From NCBI GenBank assembly GCA_965113315.1, contig OZ220375.1: DNA of 64,000 bases; one strand, 5' to 3'. The stretch is from Podarcis vaucheri. Taxonomy: Eukaryota. Made by a program: the position numbers and the translations under genes. How positions within the stretch are numbered: position 1 is the first letter of the stretch; every line of letters begins with the position of its first letter. Positions 41,901 to 60,900 of the stretch are shown here, in pieces. Under the pieces are notes generated by a model. The model was given only the letters and a program-made list of their open reading frames with translations, ran no database searches and was not told the origin of the DNA.

Positions 41901-44900
41901 TAATATGTATATTTTCTAACAATATTTGGAAATAAACTTCTAATAATATTTACTATGCCTCATTTATATATGACAGGGCTCAGGATGATCCAAATGAAAA
42001 TTATTCATGAAGCAAAAATTGGTTGATTCAGTTTTAATGGAAACAGGGGCATGGCTCAGTTGAAGTTCCATATCATATTCTTTTCAGGTCTAGGTAGGGC
42101 TGAACCACCCGACCTCATCTGCATTCCTATAGAGCTGATATTGCTTCCCCCATCATCCTCAAAGCATCAAGGTGGAAGCATATTTGTGAGACTTGCCAGA
42201 AGCCTGGAAACAGTAATCCACAGATGGGTGGTTTATATTTGGGATGCATAAACAGAGAATATATAACGCTTTCCCACCAGCTTCCTTCATTGAAGCCATA
42301 GCACCCATCTCTTGCTCCTGGTAGACTGCATGAGATATGCTGGTTGCCACAGTTGGGGCCAGGTAAAATATTTTGTTCTCTTCTTTCTTTGTCTGGCTCA
42401 GGTTGGAGGTATTTTTCCTTCTACTTCATATACCTAACCAGAATCTCCAGATAACTGCAGTTACTTGTGGGAGTCAGATAATTAGTTGAATTTGTTTTCT
42501 GGTCATTTGACATATATATACAGGAGAGGAAAAAGGTTGCCAAAACTGGTTTGTATGCTGTTGTCAGGGACTGTGCTGAGGAGGACTGTACTGAGGAGGA
42601 ATGGTGGGAGCCTCCCCCTCCCCCTGCTCCAGATCCTGACTCTTCCCAGAAGCAGGAGGACAGTATAGATTTGGAACAGTGATTTGCAGAGGGTCATTGT
42701 TCAGAAGGCAGAAGCTGGGAAATACTGGATGGGAAACAGATAGGAGAATCATAGAATCATAGAATCATAGAGTTGGAAGAGACCACAAGGGCCATCGAGT
42801 CCAACCCCCTGCCAAGCAGGAAACACCATCAGAGCACTCCTGACATATGGTTGTCAAGCCTCTGCTTAAAGACCTCCAAAGTAGGAGACTCCACCACACT
42901 CCTTGGCAGCAAATTCCACTGTCGAACAGCTCTTACTGTCAGGAAGTTCTTCCTAATGTTTAGGTGGAATCTTCTTTCTTGTAGAAGAAGAAACACTGGA
43001 AGAGAGAGGGTTAACAGATTCACAGTCTCTGGACAGCATTCACACACACACACTTCTCCAAAGTCATGGAGAGCTCAGAAAGTGGCAGAAGAGAAAGCAC
43101 AGAGGGTACAAGCTCAGATTGCATGACGTAAGAGTGACATAGATTAATAGGAAGGGAAGGGGGTGTGATCCTTAATTGGGAGCACTGCCTTTTCTAGGAG
43201 ATGTGTTCTTTGTTCTCTTGCTGTGATTATTAAAGTTTCTAACTTGTGAGAAGACTCCTTTTCTGCTTGTTATATTTGTCTACTGCCCTGGGGGGAAGAA
43301 GCCAATTCCTTGAAGCCTGACAGCTGTGGTCTCTATAGCCTGTTCAACAGGGTATGGTCACTTTACATATTAATCAATGTGGGCCTTAGATGGGGTGGTG
43401 AATCAGGAAGATCTCACCCAATCAAGAAAGGCTTAGGAGAGTGATAGAGGTTTGCCACACCTGGTCTTCTCCCTATATAGTTTACAATTTCTTAGCATTA
43501 ATAAAATGGTCCTAATTTAATATGTATATTGTGTTTTGCATCTTTACTTCTGATTTCCTAAGACAAACATTTAACTTCATATAAAATACATTTTCTGTAA
43601 AAATGTTTAAGGGATGACTGGTCCACTTTCTTATTCGAAGTTCAACAACTTAAAATTTCTTTCAAGTATTTCACCCTTTGGAAATTATTTCTGGTTTATT
43701 GATAGGTGGTGCCTATTTCTGTGTGTAATGACTACTGCTGCCCTGGTAATCAGAAGAAAAAGAAGGAAGGCGGGAAATTTTGCTGCTATGATTGTGTTCC
43801 ATGTCCAGAAGGGAAGGTCTCAAACAGAAATGGTATATGACAATGATCCCCTACCTACTGTGTGGCATCATGGTTAGAGTGTCAGACTATGATCTGGGAG
43901 ACCATGGTTCAAAACCCCACAGGGTTCAAATGAAGCCCACTGGGTTGCCTTGGGCCAATCATAAAAAAAATAATTTTATCATTTATTCCCTGTCCTTTTG
44001 CCTGGGTTCCCCCAGCCACTCTGGGCAGCTTACAGCACATATAAAATCACAGAAAACCTCAACCATTAAAAACTTCCCTATTCAAGTCTTCTTTCAGATG
44101 TCTTCTAAAAGTCATGAAGTTGTTTATCTTTGGCATCTGATGGGAGGGCATTCCACAAGGAAGGCACCACTGCCAAGAAGGTCCTCCGCCTGGTTTTAAC
44201 CAGGAGACCCTTGGAGGAGGAGCTCAGTTTCTGGGCTGAATGATAGAGGTGATGATGCTCCTTCAGGTATACTGGACCAAGGCTATTTAGGGCTTTAAAG
44301 GTCACCATCTCTTAACCTAACCTACATCACAGGGTGGTTGTGAGGTTGAAATGGGGAGGCAGAGAACCATGTACACTACCCTGAGCTCCATGGAAGAAAA
44401 TGGAGGTATATAATTGTATAATGATGATGATGATGATACTGTCAGAGAGTATTGGCTTCAGACCCCATTTTTACTTTTGTTTTTGAATAAAGAGGGCATG
44501 GGGTGAGGACACTGATGTAGAAATAAATCCCCCTATTTTCATCAAAGGAATGCTGGAGGGTATGGAATTGGCATGGCAGCATTGTTTCACTTGGATCTGC
44601 CATCCTGAAATCACCAGATAAAGCCTATTGACCTCCACCTGCAGGTTGAATGGAGTGGCAGCTTAAACTGCTTTAAGCAAAACTTTGATAATTTCAGTCA
44701 ACATCTTTAACAACAATTCAAATCATTCCACATCAAATCATGCTCATTCAGAATAAGAAGGTTCAGATGAACAGTAGCAACAATTGTTACATAGGAGGAA
44801 AACAAAACAAAACAAAACAAAACAAAACAGACATGCATTGCCACTGAAATTTTATCCTCTTCTGTTTTTTCAGATATGGAAAACTGCTTCAGATGCCCAG

Positions 44901-45775
44901 AAGATCAGTATCCAAACCAGAACAAAAATGGATGCATCCCCAAAATAATAAGCTTTCTTTCTTATGAGGAACCATTAGGGATCATCTTAGCCTCAGTTGC
45001 TCTTACTTTTTCCCTGATCACAATATTGGTGCTAGGAATGTTTATTCAACAAAAAAACACTCCCATAGTGAAAGCCAACAACTGGGACCTCACATTCACT
45101 CTCCTAGTCTCCCTCCTGCTCTGCTTCCTCTCATCTTTGCTGTTCCTAGGAAAACCTGGGAAAGTGACCTGCCTTCTTCGCCAACCAACTTTTGGCATTG
45201 TCTTCTCAGTAGCTATTTCTTGTGTGTTGGCCAAAACCATCACCGTAGTTGTAGCTTTCATGGCCACAAAGCCAGGCTCCAGTATGAGGAAGTGGGTGGG
45301 AAAAAGACTGACCAGTGTCATTGTTCTCCCCTGCTCTCTTACTCAAGCAAGCATCTGTACTGTGTGGTTGATGACTTCGCCTCCATTTCCTGCTCTAGAC
45401 ATGTACTCAGTAATGGAAGAAACCATTGTGCAGTGCAATGAAGGGTCAACTACCTTGTTTTACTGTGTCTTGGGCTACATGGGCTTCCTGGCCATTGCCA
45501 GCTTCATTGTGGCATTCAAAGCTCGTGAATTACCTGACAGTTTTAATGAGGCCAAGTTTATTACCTTCAGCATGTTGCTGTTTTGCAGTGTTTGGCTGAC
45601 CTTTGTTCCAACCTATCTGAGCACCAAAGGGAAATCCATGGTGGTGGTGGAGATCTTCTCCATCTTGTCTTCCAGTGCTGGATTGTTGGGATGCATCTTT
45701 GCCCCGAAATGTTACATCATTATGCTGAGGCCAGAGCTGAATAGCAGAGAGCAACTAATAAGGAGAAAGAAGTGA
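35908..45775 (+). CDS. V2R gene E, open frame, ~893 aa if the upstream ATG at 35908 is used
   Basis: join(35908..36176,38942..39233,40348..41211,41573..41800,43706..43832,44874..45775), 2682 nt in frame. The position homologous to the paralogs' start codon (35962) is GTC, so the start is uncertain. Confidence 0.88.
42562..43322 (+). mobile_element. Solo LTR with a nested CR1 fragment, in gene E intron 4
   Basis: TGTCAG...CTGACA termini; perfect 5-bp TSD GCTGT (42557-42561 / 43323-43327); a related copy lies at 56907-57441. Confidence 0.8.
42746..42981 (-). mobile_element. CR1 3' end nested in the solo LTR
   Basis: Near-identical to 34571-34805. Confidence 0.9.
43858..44438 (+). mobile_element. 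Old tRNA-derived SINE (Squam3/MIR-like) interrupted by an L2 3' fragment (~43975-44308, - strand)
   Basis: A/B-box-like tggcatcatggttagag...ggttcaaaacc; (ATG)n tail. The internal segment matches the L2 end at 2889-3255. Confidence 0.65.
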
Positions 45776-47544: not shown

Positions 47545-47602
47545 CCTGGCCTCCTAGCTTCTCTAAAAATACAGACCTTCCTGTGCCCATCAGTATCAAG
47601 TT

Positions 47603-49519
47603 GTGTGGCAAGTTCCCTCCCCCAAAGAAATGAAGGCACAGGACACGTTAGTTAAGGTTAATGGGCGTAAATGGCCACAACTTTATTGATTACAGAATTG
47701 AAGGTATTGGCCTTAGGCATTGGTTCCTATGACTACCCGGCATGGTAACCGGGAAGGGTTGAACACAAACCGTGGGGGTGTCCTGCTGGAGTACGCCAGC
47801 TAGGACCCCCACGGGTGTCACCGCTCGTGGGCGTGCCGGCGGCCCTCACCTTACTAGGTCTCGGACAAGGCAAACGCCCCCGGAGTCCTCTACCGGACTA
47901 CCCTTTTCTCGGGGGAAGGTGATGGCGTGTCCTTCCCCCCCATCCATTTGCATCACAATAGACCCCTGCCAATGCCTAACCGCCAAAACCGTGAAAGTTG
48001 TGACGATTTGCTACGAGGTAGGCGAAAAAACCAAAAGGCTGCAAAGTCGCCAACTTGGAAAAATTCCTACCAGGCCCCTTGCGGCGACCAACCGAAGTCC
48101 ATAGCAAGGTCAAGACTGCCTAACCTAAGGGTGGGTGGGCTGGGAAAAGCTTCTCTGCTGCCGAGGGGAAAGAGGGGGATCCCGGGGCGTGCCTGGCCTT
48201 AAATAGCCCAGGCCACGCCTCCCCAGCCCGCCTATTGGCGGGCAGGGGGAAGGCGGAGAGGCACGCCCCCGGGGATTCCCTGGCTCTCGCGGGGCTAAAC
48301 TCCAGCCCCGCGCTTGTGGGAGGGGCCAGCCCACAACACCCTCTCCTCCCGAGGCTCGGAAATGGCTTTGTGTGGCAAGTTCCCTCCCCCAAAGAAATGA
48401 AGACACAGGACACGTTAGTTAAGGTTAATGGGCGTAAATGGCCACAACTTTATTGATTACAGAATTGAAGGTATTGGCCTTAGGCATTGGTTCCTATGAC
48501 TACCCGGCATGGTAACCGGGAAGGGTTGAACACAAACCGTGGGGGTGTCCTGCTGGAGTACGCCAGCTAGGACCCCCACGGGTGTCACCGCTCGTGGGCG
48601 TGCCGGCGGCCCTCACCTTACTAGGTCTCGGACAAGGCAAACGCCCCCGGAGTCCTCTACCGGACTACCCTTTTCTCGGGGGAAGGTGATGGCGTGTCCT
48701 TCCCCCCCATCCATTTGCATCACAATAGACCCCTGCCAATGCCTAACCGCCAAAACCGTGAAAGTTGTGACGATTTGCTACGAGGTAGGCGAAAAAACCA
48801 AAAGGCTGCAAAGTCGCCAACTTGGAAAAATTCCTACCAGGCCCCTTGCGGCGACCAACCGAAGTCCATAGCAAGGTCAAGACTGCCTAACCTAAGGGTG
48901 GGTGGGCTGGGAAAAGCTTCTCTGCTGCCGAGGGGAAAGAGGGGGATCCCGGGGCGTGCCTGGCCTTAAATAGCCCAGGCCACGCCTCCCCAGCCCGCCT
49001 ATTGGCGGGCAGGGGGAAGGCGGAGAGGCACGCCCCCGGGGATTCCCTGGCTCTCGCGGGGCTAAACTCCAGCCCCGCGCTTGTGGGAGGGGCCAGCCCA
49101 CAACACCCTCTCCTCCCGAGGCTCGGAAATGGCTTTGTGTGGCAAGTTCCCTCCCCCAAAGAAATGAAGACACAGGACACGTTAGTTAAGGTTAATGGGC
49201 GTAAATGGCCACAACTTTATTGATTACAGAATTGAAGGTATTGGCCTTAGGCATTGGTTCCTATGACTACCCGGCATGGTAACCGGGAAGGGTTGAACAC
49301 AAACCGTGGGGGTGTCCTGCTGGAGTACGCCAGCTAGGACCCCCACGGGTGTCACCGCTCGTGGGCGTGCCGGCGGCCCTCACCTTACTAGGTCTCGGAC
49401 AAGGCAAACGCCCCCGGAGTCCTCTACCGGACTACCCTTTTCTCGGGGGAAGGTGATGGCGTGTCCTTCCCCCCCATCCATTTGCATCACAATAGACCCC
49501 TGCCAATGCCTAACCGCCA
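47603..49519 (-). repeat. 3' split-direct-repeat block of the Ngaro element; 767-bp period, ~2.5 copies (B3-X-A3-B2-X-A2-B1)
   Basis: B = 47603-47985, 48370-48752, 49137-49519 (383 bp). X = 47986-48145, 48753-48912 (160 bp). A = 48146-48369, 48913-49136 (224 bp). Copies look identical except G/A at 47636. Confidence 0.95.
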
Positions 49520-49546
49520 CTCGAGCAAAGCTCGCCGCCAATACCT

Positions 49547-50161
49547 TCAGGCCTGTAACCAACCCCTAATCCCTGCTATGATATCTCCCAACCATATATC
49601 ATTCCCTGCATCGGACAAATGCACGCCATCCCGCCTGTAGAGGGCCTCGTTGCTGAACTGTATGTTTGGGTGTCGGATGATGCACCCGCCCAAGGCCACC
49701 ACTCTACGTTCCACTGCCCGCTCTAAAACTTTCCTTGCTTTATTCACACCCACTGGGCTCGCGCAGTCCCTCCATGTCCTCCTCTCAAGCAACGAGGACC
49801 ACAGTATATTGATGTTTGGGTACACTGTCACCAGCTCGGACAGGTCATCAAAAATGTTCCATCTGAGGTCTATCGCCTTGCGGTATGCGAGGTCGTTCTC
49901 GCCCAACTGAATCACTAATGCATCCGGAGGCCCTTCAAAGGCAGCCTTCGCCATCACTGCTGGCTTGAACTCACTCCAGCGCATCCCTCTCCACGCTAGC
50001 CACGCCAGCTCCACCTTCGCAGGCAACTTCAGATTTTGCCCTAGCCCTGTACTCATGGCCCGAATCCTGGCCCAATGAACTATACTGTGGCCCACCAACC
50101 AGATGCGCGCCTTTTTAGATCCTGGAAAGCAAGCAGACGGGGAAAAGGGGTTTAGCGGCAT
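49547..50161 (-). CDS. SGNH/GDSL-type hydrolase ORF of the Ngaro element
   Basis: Block I LVGHS, block II RGM, block III QLGEND, block V DGVHLS: S-G-N-H residues plus DxxH. Confidence 0.85.
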   Translation of the reverse strand: MPLNPFSPSACFPGSKKARIWLVGHSIVHWARIRAMSTGLGQNLKLPAKVELAWLAWRGMRWSEFKPAVMAKAAFEGPPDALVIQLGENDLAYRKAIDLRWNIFDDLSELVTVYPNINILWSSLLERRTWRDCASPVGVNKARKVLERAVERRVVALGGCIIRHPNIQFSNEALYRRDGVHLSDAGNDIWLGDIIAGIRGWLQA

Positions 50162-50170
50162 ACCTCTTAG

Positions 50171-51061
50171 TCATACGCTATTTCTGACATATGTTTTATA
50201 AGCATTGGATCTCCATCTCCCCATTTCCTTAATCCTGTTGGTGGAGAGCCCCAGATGCACTGCGGTGGTGGCCGCCCCAATGCGGAAAGAATGTGCCGCA
50301 AACTCAGCCGCTGGTAGCCCACATGCCGTCAAAGCCATACGCATCACCCTGGTGAATTGCTGCCTGGCCAATCGCGACCCGTCTGCGTGGATCAGCAGGG
50401 GACCCGGGTTTTTTGGCCTGAGGTATAGAAAGCGTCTCGTGTCCCTTACCGGACAGGGGCCCTTGTCTTGGACTGCTGGAAGGCGGAGAAGAGTCCCTTT
50501 TCCCTGTTGGTCTGTCTTTGAGCTCCGCACCCTAACTATTAGATCCGACTGTGACAGGGTCAGATCGCTTAACAGGATGCCCCTCTGTGTATGGTTGACC
50601 CCCCCTTCGCAGACGACCTCCCCAATACGTAGTGCGCCAAAAAATGATATAGAGAACGCAGCCGAGAATAGGCGTGCTTCGTACTTAGACCAGCACACTG
50701 AGCGTAATGCTTTGTGAATCTGTGACAAGATGTCATACGTTATAGGCCGCCTCCTATCTGCACTAGGGGGGTGCTGTCTGCGCCATCCTTCCAGTGTCTT
50801 GCGTACGATAAAAGCCGCGCACGGGTCGGTCGCAAAAAAGGCTTTACAAAAGTAAGAAATCCCTGCTGACTGGATATTAAGGGTTTTGGGTGCCCTGCCT
50901 AACTCTTTCAGGTGAGCCAAGTAGTGGAGGACCTCTCTCGTTGAGGGTGTAGCGAAGGGCCTGGCGCCCGGTGTATTACTACGGAATTTTAGAAAATCCG
51001 CCCAAGCTTTCTTGTATGAACGCATTGTGGACGGAGCCACAGCACCGAATACTCCCTTCAT
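50171..51061 (-). CDS. Tyrosine recombinase (296 aa)
   Basis: FFGALRIGE (catalytic R), SKTDQ, CPV, HSFRIGAAT (HxxR), GRWRSNAYKTY (W and catalytic Y). The ATG overlaps the RT stop as TAATG. Confidence 0.95.
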   Translation of the reverse strand: MKGVFGAVAPSTMRSYKKAWADFLKFRSNTPGARPFATPSTREVLHYLAHLKELGRAPKTLNIQSAGISYFCKAFFATDPCAAFIVRKTLEGWRRQHPPSADRRRPITYDILSQIHKALRSVCWSKYEARLFSAAFSISFFGALRIGEVVCEGGVNHTQRGILLSDLTLSQSDLIVRVRSSKTDQQGKGTLLRLPAVQDKGPCPVRDTRRFLYLRPKNPGPLLIHADGSRLARQQFTRVMRMALTACGLPAAEFAAHSFRIGAATTAVHLGLSTNRIKEMGRWRSNAYKTYVRNSV

Positions 51062-52914
51062 TACTTCTCTCTCCCAAGATTCCAGAGATGCTCCGGGAAA
51101 GGCATCGATGATTGCTCCGCATCCGGCGCTAAAGAGCGAAAGCGCTCCATCTGAAAACGAGACAGAGCATCCGCGATGTCATTATTAACGCCAGGTACGA
51201 ATTTGGCCGAAAAGTATATGTTCCGTTCCAGACACAGAAGTACAAAGGATCGTAGGAGGTTTCCTACTCTGGAGGAGCGTGCGGATTGTCTAGCCAGGAC
51301 CGAAACCACTGCCTGATTGTCTGTATTGAAACAAACCCTATGATTGCTAAACTGCTCCGCCCAAAGATGTACCGCTACTACTATCGGGAAAAATTCCAAA
51401 AATGTAAGGTCGCGGGTAATGGGCTGACCCCGCCATTCCTGGGGCCACTCTCTGGCGCACCATTGGCCTTTAAAGTAGACCCCAAAACCCAGCGACCCTG
51501 CCGCATCTGACTGAACCTGGAAGTCCGCGCTCAGTGCCATGGAGTCCTGCCATAGAGATATACCGTTGTACCTTTCCAAAAATTGCAGCCAGACGCCCAG
51601 GTCAGCCTTGACTTCCTTGGATAGGCGTACCCTATGCTGTGGTGCCTTAAGGCCCGCCGATAATCTGGCCAAGCGGTTACAAAAGGGGCGCCCCGGCGCC
51701 ACCACCCTACAGGCGAAATTTAAATGACCCAGCAATGATTGAATCTGTTTCAGGGTGATTTTCTTTAGGGGCAACAGCTGTTGAATCAATGCCTTGAGTG
51801 CCAAGAGCTTATCTACTGGCAACCGTGAGGTCTGGGCCACAGTATCCAGCTCAATACCCAAATACACTAAACAGGTGGCCGGGCCCTCCGTTTTGTCAGC
51901 GGCTAGAGGTACCCCCAATTCCCTCGCCAAGGCTGTGAAGGCCTCGAGGAGGGCTGAACAACGGGCTTTACTGTCAGCAGCCAAAATAAAATCATCAAGA
52001 TAATGCGACACACCCAACGACCCAGTTTTGTGTTGTAAAGCCCAATCCAGAAATGTGCTAAAGGATTCAAAGGCCGCGCAAGCCACGGAGCAGCCCATGG
52101 GCATCGCCTTGTCGATAAAATAAGCCCCTTCAAATTTAAAGCCTAACCATCGGAAGTCCTCTGGACGCACTGGGAGAAGGCGGAAGGCCGACTCGATGTC
52201 ACACTTTGCTAAGAATGCCCCCTGCCCAAATCTCCGAATCATTTTTACTGCCTGATCGAAGGAGGCGTATTTGACTGAACAGAGCTCCTGGGGAATTGCA
52301 TCGTTGACTGAGCCCCCCCTAGGGTATGAGAGGTTATGAATCATCCGAAATTCCCCAGGGGCCTTTTTTGGAACGATGCCCAGGGGAGATAGATGAAGTC
52401 CTGCCAAGGGTGGCTCATCGAAGGGACCAGCCACTCTTCCTGCCCTGATTTCTTTCTCTATCTTTTTCCTAGCTATATCGGGCCTCTCCCTAACTGATTT
52501 TTGATTTTGGGGTACGCCGGAATTGGGGGGAACAGCGACCGGGATTCTGAAACCTTTGGAGAAACCTTCCCATAGATAGTGTGCGGCTTCACGATCAGGG
52601 TATATTTTTAGCAGGGTATTTAAAGGCTGTAAGCGGATAGGGGAAAAAGCCATGCCAAGATCGAAATTATTAACGGATACCTGAAACCTAGTGGAGGGAT
52701 CCGCTGATGCCTCTGGTAAAGCTGTGTTGATATTATTGGCGGTTACCTGCTCCCAGTTGTGCGGATCCGGGGGCGCCCCTGGCGTTGCTGTGGGAGTACC
52801 CCCTGCCACCCCGAAAGGGCTGTTGTTTACCCTTGAAGCAGGCAGAGGCGGGATGGTTACCCCAGCAGCGCTCACACTCGTGGAGGTACTTACAGAAGGG
52901 GCGTGTGCATGCAC
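51061..52914 (-). CDS. Ngaro reverse transcriptase / RNase H
   Basis: SPLGIVPKK, FRMIHNLS, KCDIESAFR, MPMG, YLDD, YLGI. RNase H motifs SDAAG, LEFFPI, TDN, NNDIADALSR. Overlaps the gag 3' end in another frame; the true start is uncertain. Confidence 0.93.
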   Translation of the reverse strand: MHAHAPSVSTSTSVSAAGVTIPPLPASRVNNSPFGVAGGTPTATPGAPPDPHNWEQVTANNINTALPEASADPSTRFQVSVNNFDLGMAFSPIRLQPLNTLLKIYPDREAAHYLWEGFSKGFRIPVAVPPNSGVPQNQKSVRERPDIARKKIEKEIRAGRVAGPFDEPPLAGLHLSPLGIVPKKAPGEFRMIHNLSYPRGGSVNDAIPQELCSVKYASFDQAVKMIRRFGQGAFLAKCDIESAFRLLPVRPEDFRWLGFKFEGAYFIDKAMPMGCSVACAAFESFSTFLDWALQHKTGSLGVSHYLDDFILAADSKARCSALLEAFTALARELGVPLAADKTEGPATCLVYLGIELDTVAQTSRLPVDKLLALKALIQQLLPLKKITLKQIQSLLGHLNFACRVVAPGRPFCNRLARLSAGLKAPQHRVRLSKEVKADLGVWLQFLERYNGISLWQDSMALSADFQVQSDAAGSLGFGVYFKGQWCAREWPQEWRGQPITRDLTFLEFFPIVVAVHLWAEQFSNHRVCFNTDNQAVVSVLARQSARSSRVGNLLRSFVLLCLERNIYFSAKFVPGVNNDIADALSRFQMERFRSLAPDAEQSSMPFPEHLWNLGREK

Positions 52915-54253
52915 CCCTGTTGAACTCCCAACACTGGCGCCGCCGTTTTACCTCGGTCTTGCCCACTTTAGCCGAATCCAGATTTTTCTTATCAATGTAT
53001 GGATTCACATCTTCTCCCCAGTAGTTTGGATCAGTAAGGTCCCATCGGGTGGTAGGGTGCAGAGACGCGTTTCTGCGGAAATTCTCATCATATATCAGTG
53101 CAGCATTTTCTCCCGCGAGTGCGCGGGCCCTCCTTACGTGAGCCATATAGGCCACGAGATCCATGGAGCGTCTGGGATAAGCAGCGCACACGACCCCCAT
53201 AAACACCTGATAGCCATCTAGCCAGTTCTCGAAAGTGCGCTCCGCTCTAGGCGTTCTATACCTTCTCTTACCGTAAGAGCGCCTCTTTTCACCTCTTCCC
53301 ACTAATTTGTTAGGAGGAAGGAGGGTAAATATATCCACGTACTCCCCATTAAGGATTTTATTCCTCTTTTTCTGTGATAGATGGTTCCCCAATATGAAAT
53401 CCGTGGGCTGGTTGGTGGCAACTTTTACCTCCTCTACTAGAGCCCCGTCCTTCCAATCAAGCACCCCATTAAAGGTCTTCCGATGGGAATTGGCCCTCCG
53501 TTGATGTGCCCACAAAGGAATCCCATGAATACTTTCACCTTGACCCCAGTAGCCATCCATGGGGCCCTCACTATCAGAATCTGAAGAGGACGTACCTGTA
53601 TCCTCATCCGAGTCCGATTTGCTGCTCCTCTTCTTTTTTGCGGAGGTGTGCTTCTTCTTTGACTTCCTCTTACCCCCTTGCGTGCCTGTGTCGGCTGAGT
53701 TGGTCTCCGCGGCCGACTGAGGTGGTTGAGGTTCCACTCGGTCCTCGTCGGACCCCGAACCTGCGCTGTCCTCGGTGGAGCTATGCTGAGGCTCTTCCTC
53801 CTGAAAAACACTCGGAATACCTGATGTTTGTGAGAGGGGTATGACATTGGCCCCCTTAGCCGGAGTCTTCCCTTTGTCCCCACGCTTCGCAGGTGCCTTG
53901 CCCTTGCTGCCACCTTGTGCCGCCTTCCTGGATAGCGCGGACTGGGCACGTGTATTGGGGCGGCTTGCGGTTGATGTCACAGGCAGGGCATTGGCTGCTG
54001 CCACGAGAGGTGCACCAACCTGACCTTGATTGGCTGGTGGCGTGTCAGGTATGATGTTCTGTGAGGGCTCTGGGGCCGGAAGAGCCCCGGGCACGGGTCT
54101 GCATTGTCTATAAAAAGATTCAAATGCCCTGAAAAGCTGGTCAAAAGTTTGAGGATTGCAAGATATTGACACCATGCGTGCGCCCTCACTACCTGCAGCA
54201 CCCGCTGACTGATTACCGGAGGTGGAGGGCTGTTGCTCGCCTCCGGAAGCCAT
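52733..54253 (-). CDS. Ngaro Gag-like ORF1 (506 aa)
   Basis: Low-complexity N-terminal half, basic/acidic linker, and C-terminal zinc fingers CWEFNRGACTRPFCKYLH (CCCH) followed by CERCWGNHPASAC, as expected for YR-retrotransposon ORF1. Confidence 0.85.
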   Translation of the reverse strand: MASGGEQQPSTSGNQSAGAAGSEGARMVSISCNPQTFDQLFRAFESFYRQCRPVPGALPAPEPSQNIIPDTPPANQGQVGAPLVAAANALPVTSTASRPNTRAQSALSRKAAQGGSKGKAPAKRGDKGKTPAKGANVIPLSQTSGIPSVFQEEEPQHSSTEDSAGSGSDEDRVEPQPPQSAAETNSADTGTQGGKRKSKKKHTSAKKKRSSKSDSDEDTGTSSSDSDSEGPMDGYWGQGESIHGIPLWAHQRRANSHRKTFNGVLDWKDGALVEEVKVATNQPTDFILGNHLSQKKRNKILNGEYVDIFTLLPPNKLVGRGEKRRSYGKRRYRTPRAERTFENWLDGYQVFMGVVCAAYPRRSMDLVAYMAHVRRARALAGENAALIYDENFRRNASLHPTTRWDLTDPNYWGEDVNPYIDKKNLDSAKVGKTEVKRRRQCWEFNRGACTRPFCKYLHECERCWGNHPASACFKGKQQPFRGGRGYSHSNARGAPGSAQLGAGNRQ

Positions 54254-54350
54254 TGCAATCGCAACTGTTTTTTAACAAACCTGCAAATCTAGCAAGGCGA
54301 ACAGACCCCCCCTTCCACCTCTACTTTTCTTTTATAAATAAACTTTATTT

Positions 54351-54528
54351 NNNNNNNNNNNNNNNNNNNNNNNNNNNNNNNNNNNNNNNNNNNNNNNNNN
54401 NNNNNNNNNNNNNNNNNNNNNNNNNNNNNNNNNNNNNNNNNNNNNNNNNNNNNNNNNNNNNNNNNNNNNNNNNNNNNNNNNNNNNNNNNNNNNNNNNNNN
54501 NNNNNNNNNNNNNNNNNNNNNNNNNNNN
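54351..54528. other. Assembly gap (178 N)
   Basis: Run of N in the 5' untranslated part of the Ngaro element. Confidence 0.99.
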
Positions 54529-56126: not shown

Positions 56127-56350
56127 AAAGCTTCTCTGCTGCCGAGGGGAAAGAGGGGGATCCCGGGGCGTGCCTGGCCTTAAATAGCCCAGGCCACGCC
56201 TCCCCAGCCCGCCTATTGGCGGGCAGGGGGAAGGCGGAGAGGCACGCCCCCGGGGATTCCCTGGCTCTCGCGGGGCTAAACTCCAGCCCCGCGCTTGTGG
56301 GAGGGGCCAGCCCACAACACCCTCTCCTCCCGAGGCTCGGAAATGGCTTT
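56127..56350 (-). promoter_or_regulatory. Ngaro 5' repeat A1 with candidate Pol II promoter
   Basis: Identical to A2/A3. On the - strand: CCAAT (56219-56215), GC-box-like GGGGAGGCGTGGC, and TATTTAA (56186-56180), in canonical order facing gag. Confidence 0.65.
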
Positions 56351-57916: not shown

Positions 57917-60900
57917 TCAGTTCTTTCTCATTATTTGCTCCCTATTGTTCAGCTCAGGCCTCAGCACAATGATGTAGCATTTACGGGCAAAAATGCAGCC
58001 CAATAATCCAGCGCTGGAGGACAAGATGGAGAAGATCTCCACCTCCACCATGGATTTCCCTTTGGTGTTTAGATATGTTGGGATAAAGGTCAGCCAAACA
58101 CTGCAAAACAACAACATGCTGAAGGTAATAAACTTGGCTTCATTAAAACTGTCTGGTAATTTGCGAGCTGCAAATGCCACAATGAAGCTGGCAAGAGCCA
58201 GGAGGCCCATGTAGCCCAGAACAAGATAAAACAGGGTCACAGACCCTTCATTACATTGCACAATGGTCTCTTCTGCTACAGAGTCCATGTCTAGATCGGG
58301 GAATGGGGGAGAAGTCATCAACCACACAGTACAAATACTTGCTTGAGTAAGAGAGCAGGAAAGGAAAATGGCATAAGCCAGACGTTTTCCTACCCACTTC
58401 CTTGTGCTAGATCCTGGGTTAGTGGCCATAAAAGCTACAACTACAGTGACAGTTTTCGCCAACACACATGAAACAGCCAGTGAGAAGACGATGCCAAATG
58501 TTGGTTGGCGAAGAATGCAGGTCACTTCCCCAGGTTTTCCAACGAATAGCAAAGATGAGAGGAAGCAGAACAGTAGCGAGATGAGGAGAATGTAAGTTAG
58601 ATCCCGGTTGTTGGCTTTGACAATGGGAGTATCTTTGTATTTAATAAAAGTTCCTATCACCAAACTTGTGAGCAGTGAAAAAGAAAGAGCAAGTGAGGCC
58701 AAGCTGATCCCAAATGATTCATTGTAAGAAAGAAAGCTTATTATTTTGGGGATGCATCCAGTTTTGTTCTTGTTTGGATACTGATCTCCTGGGCATATGA
58801 TACACTCATCCATATCTGAAAAGTAGAATAAGGTCAAATTCCAGTAGCAATTCATGTGTGCTCTTTACGTCTTTTTTTATCTTATCCTTCTGATTTTAAG
58901 GGATTTATAATTATATAACAGTATGTGAAATAATTTTTTTGAGTATTCTGCTGAATGTATGATGTTTGAATTTAAACAATATTAAGCTGCTGCTCCATGC
59001 ACCCTGCACATCAGGGCTTGTTACAACTACACGTAAATGGGGGGGCATCAGGCATCAGTGGGCTCTTGTGTTGCTTGGGAGGGCACAAGGGGCCTGGTAG
59101 AGCATAGAATGAAAGCATGCCCCCAGATCAAGTGAGACTGGCCTTACATAACTCATCCCATGGTTGCCTTCTGGGATCCAGGATACTTGTCTTATGACAC
59201 ACCAGTGCTGGTCAACTCCTAAGGGTATTGATTGGATGCATTTCAACCATCAAGTGGAATTTGAACTGCACGTGCTCATTGAAATGATAACCCTTATGCT
59301 TTTGCCAGCCCTGCTTGCCTGTGCAATAATGAATACAAATCTGGCCTCATTGCAACCTAATTGCAACTCCTAGGCAATTATAGCTCAAACATAACTTTGT
59401 TTATTTGGCGATCTGTACTATGAACGCGAGTGGCACTGTGGGGGACACGGGTGGCACTGTGGTCTAAACCACAGAGCCTAGGGCTTGCCGATCAGAAGGT
59501 TGGCAGTTTGAATCCCCACGATGGGGTGGGCTCCCATTGCTCAGTCCCTGCTCCTGCCAACCTAGCAGTTCCAAAGCACCTCAAAGTGCAAGTAGATATC
59601 TACCTTAAGGACTACTATAAACTCGCTGAATGTTAGAATGTCGAGGTTTGAGTAAGAAAGGGTTACAGCGAAATAAGATTAGATTGAAGAAAAGATTAAG
59701 AAGACAGAGGACTGACAGATGTACTTAGAGTTGCTAAAAACTTTTGGACAGTTGGATGCAGAAAGGGGAGGTATGGGGAAGTCGGAGAAACATGGTTTAT
59801 GAAAAAAGGTTATGAAACTATACGTGTTTGTATGTCTTTTTACATGTTTGTATTGTCCTAAAAAAAATGTAAAACCAATAAAAAATTTATAAAAAACAAA
59901 AAAACAAAGTGCAAGTAGATAAATAGGTACCGCTCCAGAGAAAAGGTAAATGGTATTTCCGTGCACTGCTCTGGTTCACCAGAAGCGGCTTAGTCATGGT
60001 GGCCACATGACCTGGAAGCTGTATGCTGGCTCCCATGGCCAGTAAAACGAGATGAGCGCCACAACCCCAGAGTCATCTGCAAGTGGACCTAATTGTCAGG
60101 GGTCCCTTTTCCTTCACCTTTAGGCAATTATAGTACTTGATATGTGTACAACAAAATACATTTGAGCGAAGTGGGGAGCACTTCCGTATCTAGGTTCATA
60201 GTATTGCAACAGGTTTATTTGTTTTTGAATATTTCCTTCACATGTTACTGAAAAAATGCAGAAAAACATTAGCACACAGCTCTAAGCAGGATAGTCTGGT
60301 TGCATGTAAAAATGTAGCATTTAAATCGATTTGACACAATAATCTTTACTAAAATTGAACAATGAAAAATGTTGTGTACCATTTTGGTTGGAAATCTTCC
60401 CTTCTGGACATGGAGTACAATCATAGCAGCAAAATTTCTGCCCTTCCTTCCTTTTCTTCTGACTACCAGGGCGGCAGTAGTCATTACACAGAGAAATGGG
60501 CATCACCTTTCCAGAAACAAGAAATAATTTCATAAGGGAGAAACTGAACGTCTTATCCAAAGTGCTTCATATGAAGTGCAGCAATTAGCCCATATTTTGT
60601 TAGGGGACCAGAAAAAGCAGCAAGACACAAGACCAGAAAAAATGCAAGATACATGAAATAAGCTAGGGCCATTTTATCAGCTGTAACTTTAGGAATTTAT
60701 AAATAGCAAAGGACATGTGTGGAAAATGCTTAAATCAATCAGGCTCCTAAACTGGCACTAATTGGGTGAGGTCTTCATGATTCATAACACCTTTAAAATC
60801 TTGCAGGTTCTTACACAGAGCACTGTGACAAGTCTCTAGAATTAGAATCCACAAGGGGCTCAATTTCTTTGCCAACCTCTTTCCTTTCCCACACCCACCT

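Follow-up and report, generated by a model that had tools for sequence, protein, structure and literature searches.

The 64,000-nucleotide (nt) stretch of Podarcis vaucheri DNA analysed here (contig OZ220375.1 of assembly GCA_965113315.1, hereafter the window) carries on its minus strand an intact hydrolase-bearing Ngaro retrotransposon, in which the N-terminal part of the gag-like frame (Gag-N) is likely to be spliced in frame to an SGNH hydrolase exon, the most 3' open reading frame (ORF) of the element. We estimate at roughly 0.78 the probability that this splice is real; it would constitute an undescribed variant of subgenomic splicing. The parts of the element involved are the following, RT standing for reverse transcriptase and YR for tyrosine recombinase.

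53596..54253, minus strand: coding segment of the shared exon 1 (Gag residues 1-219 plus one base), matching the N-terminal part of fused public gene models
53590..53598, minus strand: 5' splice site, phase 1, exon end at 53596
50122..53595, minus strand: predicted GT-AG intron of 3,474 nt (C-terminal half of Gag, RT/RNase H and YR)
50121..50167, minus strand: acceptor region of the hydrolase exon (3' splice site preceded by a pyrimidine tract and branch-point-like pentamers), including a non-conserved ATG at 50161
49547..50121, minus strand: SGNH hydrolase exon, 190 residues past the junction codon, supported by alignment, predicted structure and SGNH fold
50170..49547, minus strand: hydrolase frame from stop to stop

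Donor, acceptor and the predicted fusion protein

A sequence-only reading had placed the donor at 53596/53595, in phase 1 of gag codon 220, and a phase-1 acceptor among the early hydrolase codons (exon from 50121), and had predicted a product of about 410 residues devoid of the Gag zinc fingers, RT/RNase H and YR. Both sites were recovered at exactly these coordinates. From the gag ATG at 54253 to 53596 there are 658 nt, that is 219 codons plus one base, which sets the donor in phase 1, and the acceptor exon starts 49 nt (16 codons plus one base) inside the stop-to-stop hydrolase frame, or 13 codons plus one base from the ATG at 50161, also in phase 1. Joining 53596/53595 to 50122/50121 yields a protein of 410 residues, composed of Gag 1-219 and a complete SGNH domain, from which the parts named above are absent, the zinc fingers being two Cys/His motifs recognised by eye. 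When scored with home-made matrices derived from splice-site frequencies, the donor ranked first among the 318 GT sites of the minus strand between 56000 and 49547, and the acceptor first among the 356 AG sites between 54330 and 49547; in the entire window, equal or higher scores were displayed by 21 of 6,404 GT sites (both strands) and by 41 of 8,591 AG sites. The acceptor is preceded by a 40-nt AG-free zone with branch-point-like pentamers at -31 and -46, and the predicted intron combines the features of the major class, namely GT-AG ends, a pyrimidine tract, the AG-free zone and matched phase. On the Gag side, the N-terminal half is of low complexity and contains a Lys/Arg-rich motif (approximately residues 195-209) that stops 10 residues short of the junction, and the C-terminal half is conserved and holds the two Cys/His motifs.

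The window hydrolase itself had no Pfam match and is called SGNH because its relatives match PF13472 (26 of the 33 members of the hydrolase alignment) and because its predicted fold resembles SGNH enzymes of known structure (165 hits at E up to 0.001). The exon alone was modelled as a whole SGNH fold with a predicted local distance difference test (pLDDT) score of 97 and the first strand beginning at residue 4, which places the acceptor at the domain boundary. In the alignment, the catalytic residues S12, G45, N75, D164 and H167 are all retained in the exon, giving the S, G, N and D-x-x-H signature of the four SGNH/GDSL blocks, and the hydrolase, a predicted SGNH esterase, is therefore expected to be made somehow. 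Sequence searches of the PDB returned nothing significant for either the hydrolase or YR.

The same joint in relatives

When 21 candidate proteins were compared with full-length Gags, 15 departed from Gag where the donor aligns and continued into SGNH; a host chimera (P0083) displayed the same joint by eye, three gave weak matches only and two none. In P0013 and P0086 a duplicated piece of Gag precedes the joint. The species behind the fused models are Podarcis muralis, Zootoca vivipara and, through one model of a non-RefSeq annotation, P. lilfordi. In the tree, from which P0016 was left out because the motif is absent, the fused models fall in two separate starred clades (99/93 and 99/96), intermixed with unspliced read-through calls, and identity between these clades is about 47% for the hydrolase and 37-39% for Gag. 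The closest fused model, XP_077790728.1 (Podarcis muralis, 428 residues), is 92% identical to a full Gag up to the break. Likewise, the Zootoca locus LOC118082278 is annotated with both a full Gag (XP_034965331.1, isoform X2, 497 residues) and a Gag(1-207)-hydrolase protein (XP_034965332.1, isoform X3, 397 residues), which are 100% identical over residues 1-207 and diverge at the donor. As a rule, RefSeq adds alternative isoforms only when there is transcript evidence. These gene models, including the isoform pair, support the proposal of the sequence-only reading that the splice accounts for the translation of the most 3' ORF, and the fusion is already present in public gene models under the name 'uncharacterized'.

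Conservation around the two sites points in the same direction. In the 41 of 49 Gag rows having residues at the donor, position 219 is S, T or A (41/41), position 220 is G (41/41) and position 221 is T (38/41), which fits the donor codons xCA-GGT-A. In 12 hand-picked read-through ORFs, F, L, S and P make up 67 of the 108 residues (62%) in the nine positions before the junction, compared with 26% in the domain, K, E, D, N, R and G make up 5%, compared with 34%, and the junction residue is G in nine ORFs, each time after S, P or L; this is the pattern expected from a translated pyrimidine tract followed by a phase-1 acceptor. The tract and the phase-1 junction are equally distant from the active site in both clades of fused models. 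A Met located 11-30 residues upstream of the active-site motif was found in three of 11 read-through rows, at differing positions. Furthermore, hydrolase and YR share one frame in the window, but the hydrolase is shifted in at least six relatives, whose YR-end reading frame is closed in the window. The shifted frames and the scattered Met residues argue against both stop read-through and a fixed start codon. Thus, the expectation that donor, acceptor and phase would be conserved and the ATG at 50161 would not was borne out at the protein level across relatives.

Among 17 longer hydrolase relatives, seven are Gag-N/SGNH proteins, five are chimeras with host exons and five join YR pieces to SGNH. 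A wider search of cluster representatives with the hydrolase gave 1,398 proteins at E up to 0.001; 137 new proteins were listed, comprising 44 with a long low-complexity N-terminus, 36 short ones, eight with YR or RT pieces and 49 unclassed. The named distant relatives belong to geckos, Anolis, Pogona, Hemicordylus, three frogs, a caecilian and Mytilus, and their long low-complexity N-termini are candidate Gag sequences. No usable match was obtained in an Atlas search with Gag-N. Viral contigs gave 11 pattern matches, none of which was confirmed, and metagenomes one match in 55, uninformative, with a hydrolase 23% identical on a 1.5-kb contig.

Splicing into a Ngaro hydrolase exon, at this acceptor or close to it, was also observed in host-gene models (P0002, P0004-P0006, P0016, P0083 and P0106), the host genes being of the immunoglobulin superfamily or ZNF638/SRRM2-like, ZNF318-like and OCRL-like. 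Six further proteins (P0097, which is Sphaerodactylus LOC125439779, P0098, P0104, P0105, P0113 and P0114) are long, often have multiple isoforms and contain tandem hydrolase copies, with up to six matched stretches, and domestication of these squamate proteins is possible.

RNA data and competing explanations

Several observations weigh against the Gag-N/hydrolase splice. The splice matrices are home-made, the 12 read-through ORFs were picked by eye, and Gag residues 222-224, 227 and 228, adjacent to the donor, are also 93-100% conserved, so that Gly220 may reflect protein constraint and is not proof of a donor. Gene predictors use the donor and the acceptor for other joins, only the seven of 17 longer matches mentioned above being Gag-N/SGNH, and six Gag models (P0044, P0045, P0063, P0067, P0068 and P0073) break at or beside the donor and resume within gag. 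None of the five hydrolase proteins called from Logan is fused to Gag, no homologous DNA locus was recovered from viral contigs or metagenomes, and the comparative support consists of public gene models in which the underlying read support is not visible. A search of sequencing runs listed no RNA run as a carrier of the element. The RNA data comprised two single-cell runs and one RNA-like contig set (X9, X10 and X1, the assignment of X1 to RNA being a guess). In these three runs 54, 48 and 50 records aligned, none at the donor exon and with no listed joint at the sites; depth over the donor exon was zero in all three, which cover the 3' part of the element only. In addition, an X1 contig (88% identical, 49490-51109, depth 85) crosses the hydrolase acceptor unspliced, as a genomic RNA or a YR mRNA would. 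In the DNA run X6 (836 records), none of seven listed joints fell at the donor or acceptor, and consequently an intron-less DNA copy was not demonstrated, contigs being informative about presence and not about absence.

Three other explanations may be considered. We regard as unlikely that strong cryptic sites are used opportunistically by gene predictors or host transcripts, the fusion being then an annotation artefact or a rare by-product devoid of function. The many other predicted joins that draw on this donor and acceptor, the lack of a junction read and the X1 contig unspliced across the acceptor would fit such a case, but it leaves unaccounted for a tract and a phase-1 junction held at a constant distance from the active site in two clades of only about 47% identity, as well as the Zootoca isoform pair with its common exon 1. 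Moreover, the catalytic residues of the hydrolase are kept, so that it is made by some route, and no other route is conserved. Translation of the hydrolase alone from its own ATG, either 50161 or, in relatives, an ATG within the YR Arg-Trp codons, could rely on a short RNA or on reinitiation downstream of YR, and the acceptor, if used, would then be joined to a non-coding leader. The ATG at 50161 does sit 9 nt past the YR stop with a G at -3, and the frame is open from a Met in the YR end in P0018, P0089, P0115 and P0162; yet this shifted frame is closed in the window, a Met close to the domain is lacking in eight of the 11 read-through rows, copies that by chance possess one are preferentially reported by ORF callers, and the N-terminus so obtained is a translated pyrimidine tract of variable length lying outside the fold, all of which makes this route improbable. 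The production of YR and hydrolase as a single protein by read-through of the YR stop is very improbable. In the window the two frames coincide and CTA comes directly after the TGA stop, which makes for a leaky context, but the hydrolase frame is shifted relative to YR in at least six relatives, and the arrangement is therefore not conserved. The Gag-N/hydrolase splice is accordingly the explanation that we favour.

The recombinase and the layout of the element

The remaining features of the element, including a second acceptor that may be served by the same donor, are listed below.

51150..51170, minus strand: second acceptor (3' splice site), exon start at 51150, phase 1 with respect to YR, ranked fourth of the 356 AG sites
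50171..51178, minus strand: YR ORF, 335 codons, first ATG at 51061 (codon 40), weak Pfam integrase matches
51061..52947, minus strand: RT/RNase H ORF, 628 codons between stops, first Met at 52653, read in the +1 frame with respect to gag, PF00078 at E 4e-14
52733..54253, minus strand: gag-like ORF1, 506 residues, 51 homologues, the best 75% identical
56127..56350, minus strand: A1 copy of the split direct repeat, 224 nt, forming the 5' end of the element and matched at 100% identity by 48913-49136 and 48146-48369
47601..49519, minus strand: 3' repeats B1 (49137-49519), A2 (48913-49136), a spacer and B2, followed by an extra 767-nt tandem copy (A3, spacer, B3)

Splicing of donor 53596 to 51150 would yield a Gag-N/YR protein of 545 residues, and we consider the chances that the donor is also used in this way to be about even. 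All three fetched models that contain the YR N-terminus (two from Podarcis, one from Eublepharis) join a Gag-type exon at exactly the 51150 codon; their Gag donors are the studied one, one located about 16 codons later and one from a distant element. Against this splice, two of the three models derive from decayed copies, and the acceptor lies in conserved RNase H codons, of which it may be a by-product. In the predicted structure of YR, of moderate quality (mean pLDDT 62), the first helix spans residues 34-45 with a local pLDDT of about 70; the first ATG, at codon 40, would cut this helix, which suggests that entry into YR from upstream is likely. The X1 depth, present over YR, hydrolase and B and zero over 51228-51923 and 52272-54330, is compatible with entry of an RNA through the YR acceptor and with plain 3' bias, and since these are indistinguishable it was not counted as evidence. 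Poulter and Butler 2015 are quoted in PMC13003380 as attributing the expression of YR to frameshifting. Neither ORF overlap contains a canonical slippery heptamer in the correct phase; a single non-canonical one is located at 51100, through which a frameshift into YR may still occur. The 51150 splice suggests itself as a rival to the published proposal.

No in-phase RT acceptor was found for the studied donor, phase-1 scores ahead of the RT core reaching 0.07 at best, and a three-way scheme in which the shared exon would also serve RT is consequently without support here. A strong acceptor-like site at 52626 (minus strand, rank 2 of 356), near the RT start, is in phase 0 in RT, out of frame with the studied donor and compatible only with phase-0 gag donors such as 53428 or 52951.

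The assignment to Ngaro follows from the split direct repeats arranged as A1...B1 A2 B2, the gag, RT/RNase H and YR ORFs, and an SGNH ORF located after YR; gag, YR and hydrolase share one common frame in the window. The gag ORF gave no Pfam match, and a Pfam scan of the four ORFs of the element found no methyltransferase domain. The four open frames and the identical A copies indicate a young insertion. Its nearest named relatives are lacertid, with Gag at most 75% and hydrolase 81% identical to Podarcis proteins. A polyadenylation hexamer is present in every B copy (49221, 48454 and 47687). The extra 767-nt unit at the 3' end, which results in three B and two A copies there with one mismatch in 1,152 nt, could be a genuine duplication or an assembly effect. 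A 26-nt inverted pair (85%; 49220-49245 and 49537-49562) relates the hydrolase stop region to the stretch before the B polyadenylation hexamer, and an 896-nt inverted pair (85% complementary; 44867-45762 and 57927-58822), 12 kb apart and flanking the element, probably represents two copies of another repeat. The 1.9-kb leader contains two upstream ATGs and, at 55696-55364 (minus strand), six motifs resembling the YY1 motif, partly inside short direct repeats. An acceptor-like site is found at 54280 (minus strand, rank 7 of 356), 27 nt upstream of the gag ATG and immediately downstream of a gap of N at 54351-54528, and the leader may hold an intron.

Proposed mechanism and comparison with known systems

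We hypothesize that transcription of the element would start from A1 and that the unspliced RNA would serve both as genome and as Gag mRNA, the host spliceosome joining the phase-1 mid-gag donor, just past the Lys/Arg-rich motif, to the phase-1 acceptor three residues before the first SGNH strand. The resulting subgenomic mRNA, which we infer to be made in the germline and translated, would encode the 410-residue Gag-N/esterase without zinc fingers. Gag-N would provide a start codon and a basic RNA-binding or nuclear-targeting motif, and would bring a lipid-binding esterase to the ribonucleoprotein of the element, as proposed for the ORF1 protein (ORF1p) esterases of long interspersed elements (LINEs); by analogy with zebrafish ZfL2-1, the fusion would link the RNA particle to membranes. 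More tentatively, and with odds somewhat short of even, we propose that in hydrolase-bearing Ngaro elements across animals one Gag 5' exon acts as a shared start and targeting module, spliced in phase 1 to YR (51150, 545 residues) and to the esterase (50121, 410 residues), so that YR would be produced without frameshifting, that the order Gag-N, basic motif and esterase is convergent with the esterase ORF1p of LINEs, and that the same acceptor allowed squamate host genes to capture the esterase exon. The translation of overlapping 3' ORFs in the DIRS order has so far been guessed to involve frameshifting, and a defined splice gives real proteins to study. If the splice is confirmed, a tyrosine-recombinase retrotransposon would use subgenomic splicing of the retroviral kind, and many 'uncharacterized' gene models of reptiles, amphibians and molluscs would be re-identified as element products.

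In murine leukaemia virus an alternative donor in gag fuses the N-terminal part of Gag to a downstream frame, although in this case the element is a retrovirus and the partner is an integrase fragment instead of an esterase. The spliced ORF3/env of long terminal repeat retrotransposons is likewise a 3' accessory ORF, which in the bdelloid Vesta encodes a GDSL/SGNH hydrolase, and ORF3s are typically expressed through spliced messages (PMC5408684); in contrast to the Ngaro fusion, Vesta belongs to another retrotransposon order and its ORF3 is described there as a separate unit, not fused to 219 residues of Gag. For the DIRS gag sequence that became LAP2alpha, a splice acceptor was inferred at a site different from the present ones (PMC4495291). 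The closest layout is that of the Xenopus elements DIRS-53_XT and DIRS-54_XT, hydrolase-bearing Ngaro elements with split direct repeats, gag, RT/RNase H, YR and a fourth SGNH ORF after YR, the hydrolase being 'with no proven function' (PMC9210276). That paper differs in presenting four overlapping ORFs, and its main text contains neither of the strings 'splic' and 'intron'. Nor did look-ups of terms in PMC7192593, PMC9341512, PMC13003380, PMC8547959, PMC3783388 and PMC4157794 reveal a Gag-N/hydrolase splice. The statement of the sequence-only reading that this splice is undescribed for Ngaro agrees with the literature searched, in which no description was found, although the main Ngaro papers, which lie outside that coverage, the Repbase entries and the supplements of PMC9210276 may mention it.

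The parallel with the esterases of CR1/L2 LINEs, also put forward from the sequence, holds as architecture and not as demonstrated homology. In CR1, L2 and RTEX elements, the structural protein of the first ORF carries an arginine-rich motif ahead of a C-terminal SGNH esterase and is devoid of a structured RNA-binding domain, and the ORF1p of ZfL2-1 has, besides a coiled coil and an arginine-rich motif, an SGNH esterase that is active and binds phospholipids (PMC3905857). The Gag-N/hydrolase protein shares the basic motif placed before a C-terminal esterase, and differs from the LINE protein, which is the product of one unspliced ORF of a non-LTR element with an N-terminal coiled coil, in being assembled from two exons of a YR element; by analogy, it may work like an esterase-type ORF1p without being a member of that group. 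In the fold search, the ZfL2-1 esterase (4c1b) ranked 14th, behind bacterial SGNH enzymes, and a common origin was not shown. Since ZfL2-1 is no closer than bacterial folds and SGNH/GDSL esterases were captured independently (PMC5408684), convergence is the simpler reading. Two unrelated retroelement orders would then have converged on a structural protein that unites a basic motif and an SGNH esterase, an outcome that would strengthen the idea of a lipid or membrane role in retrotransposition.

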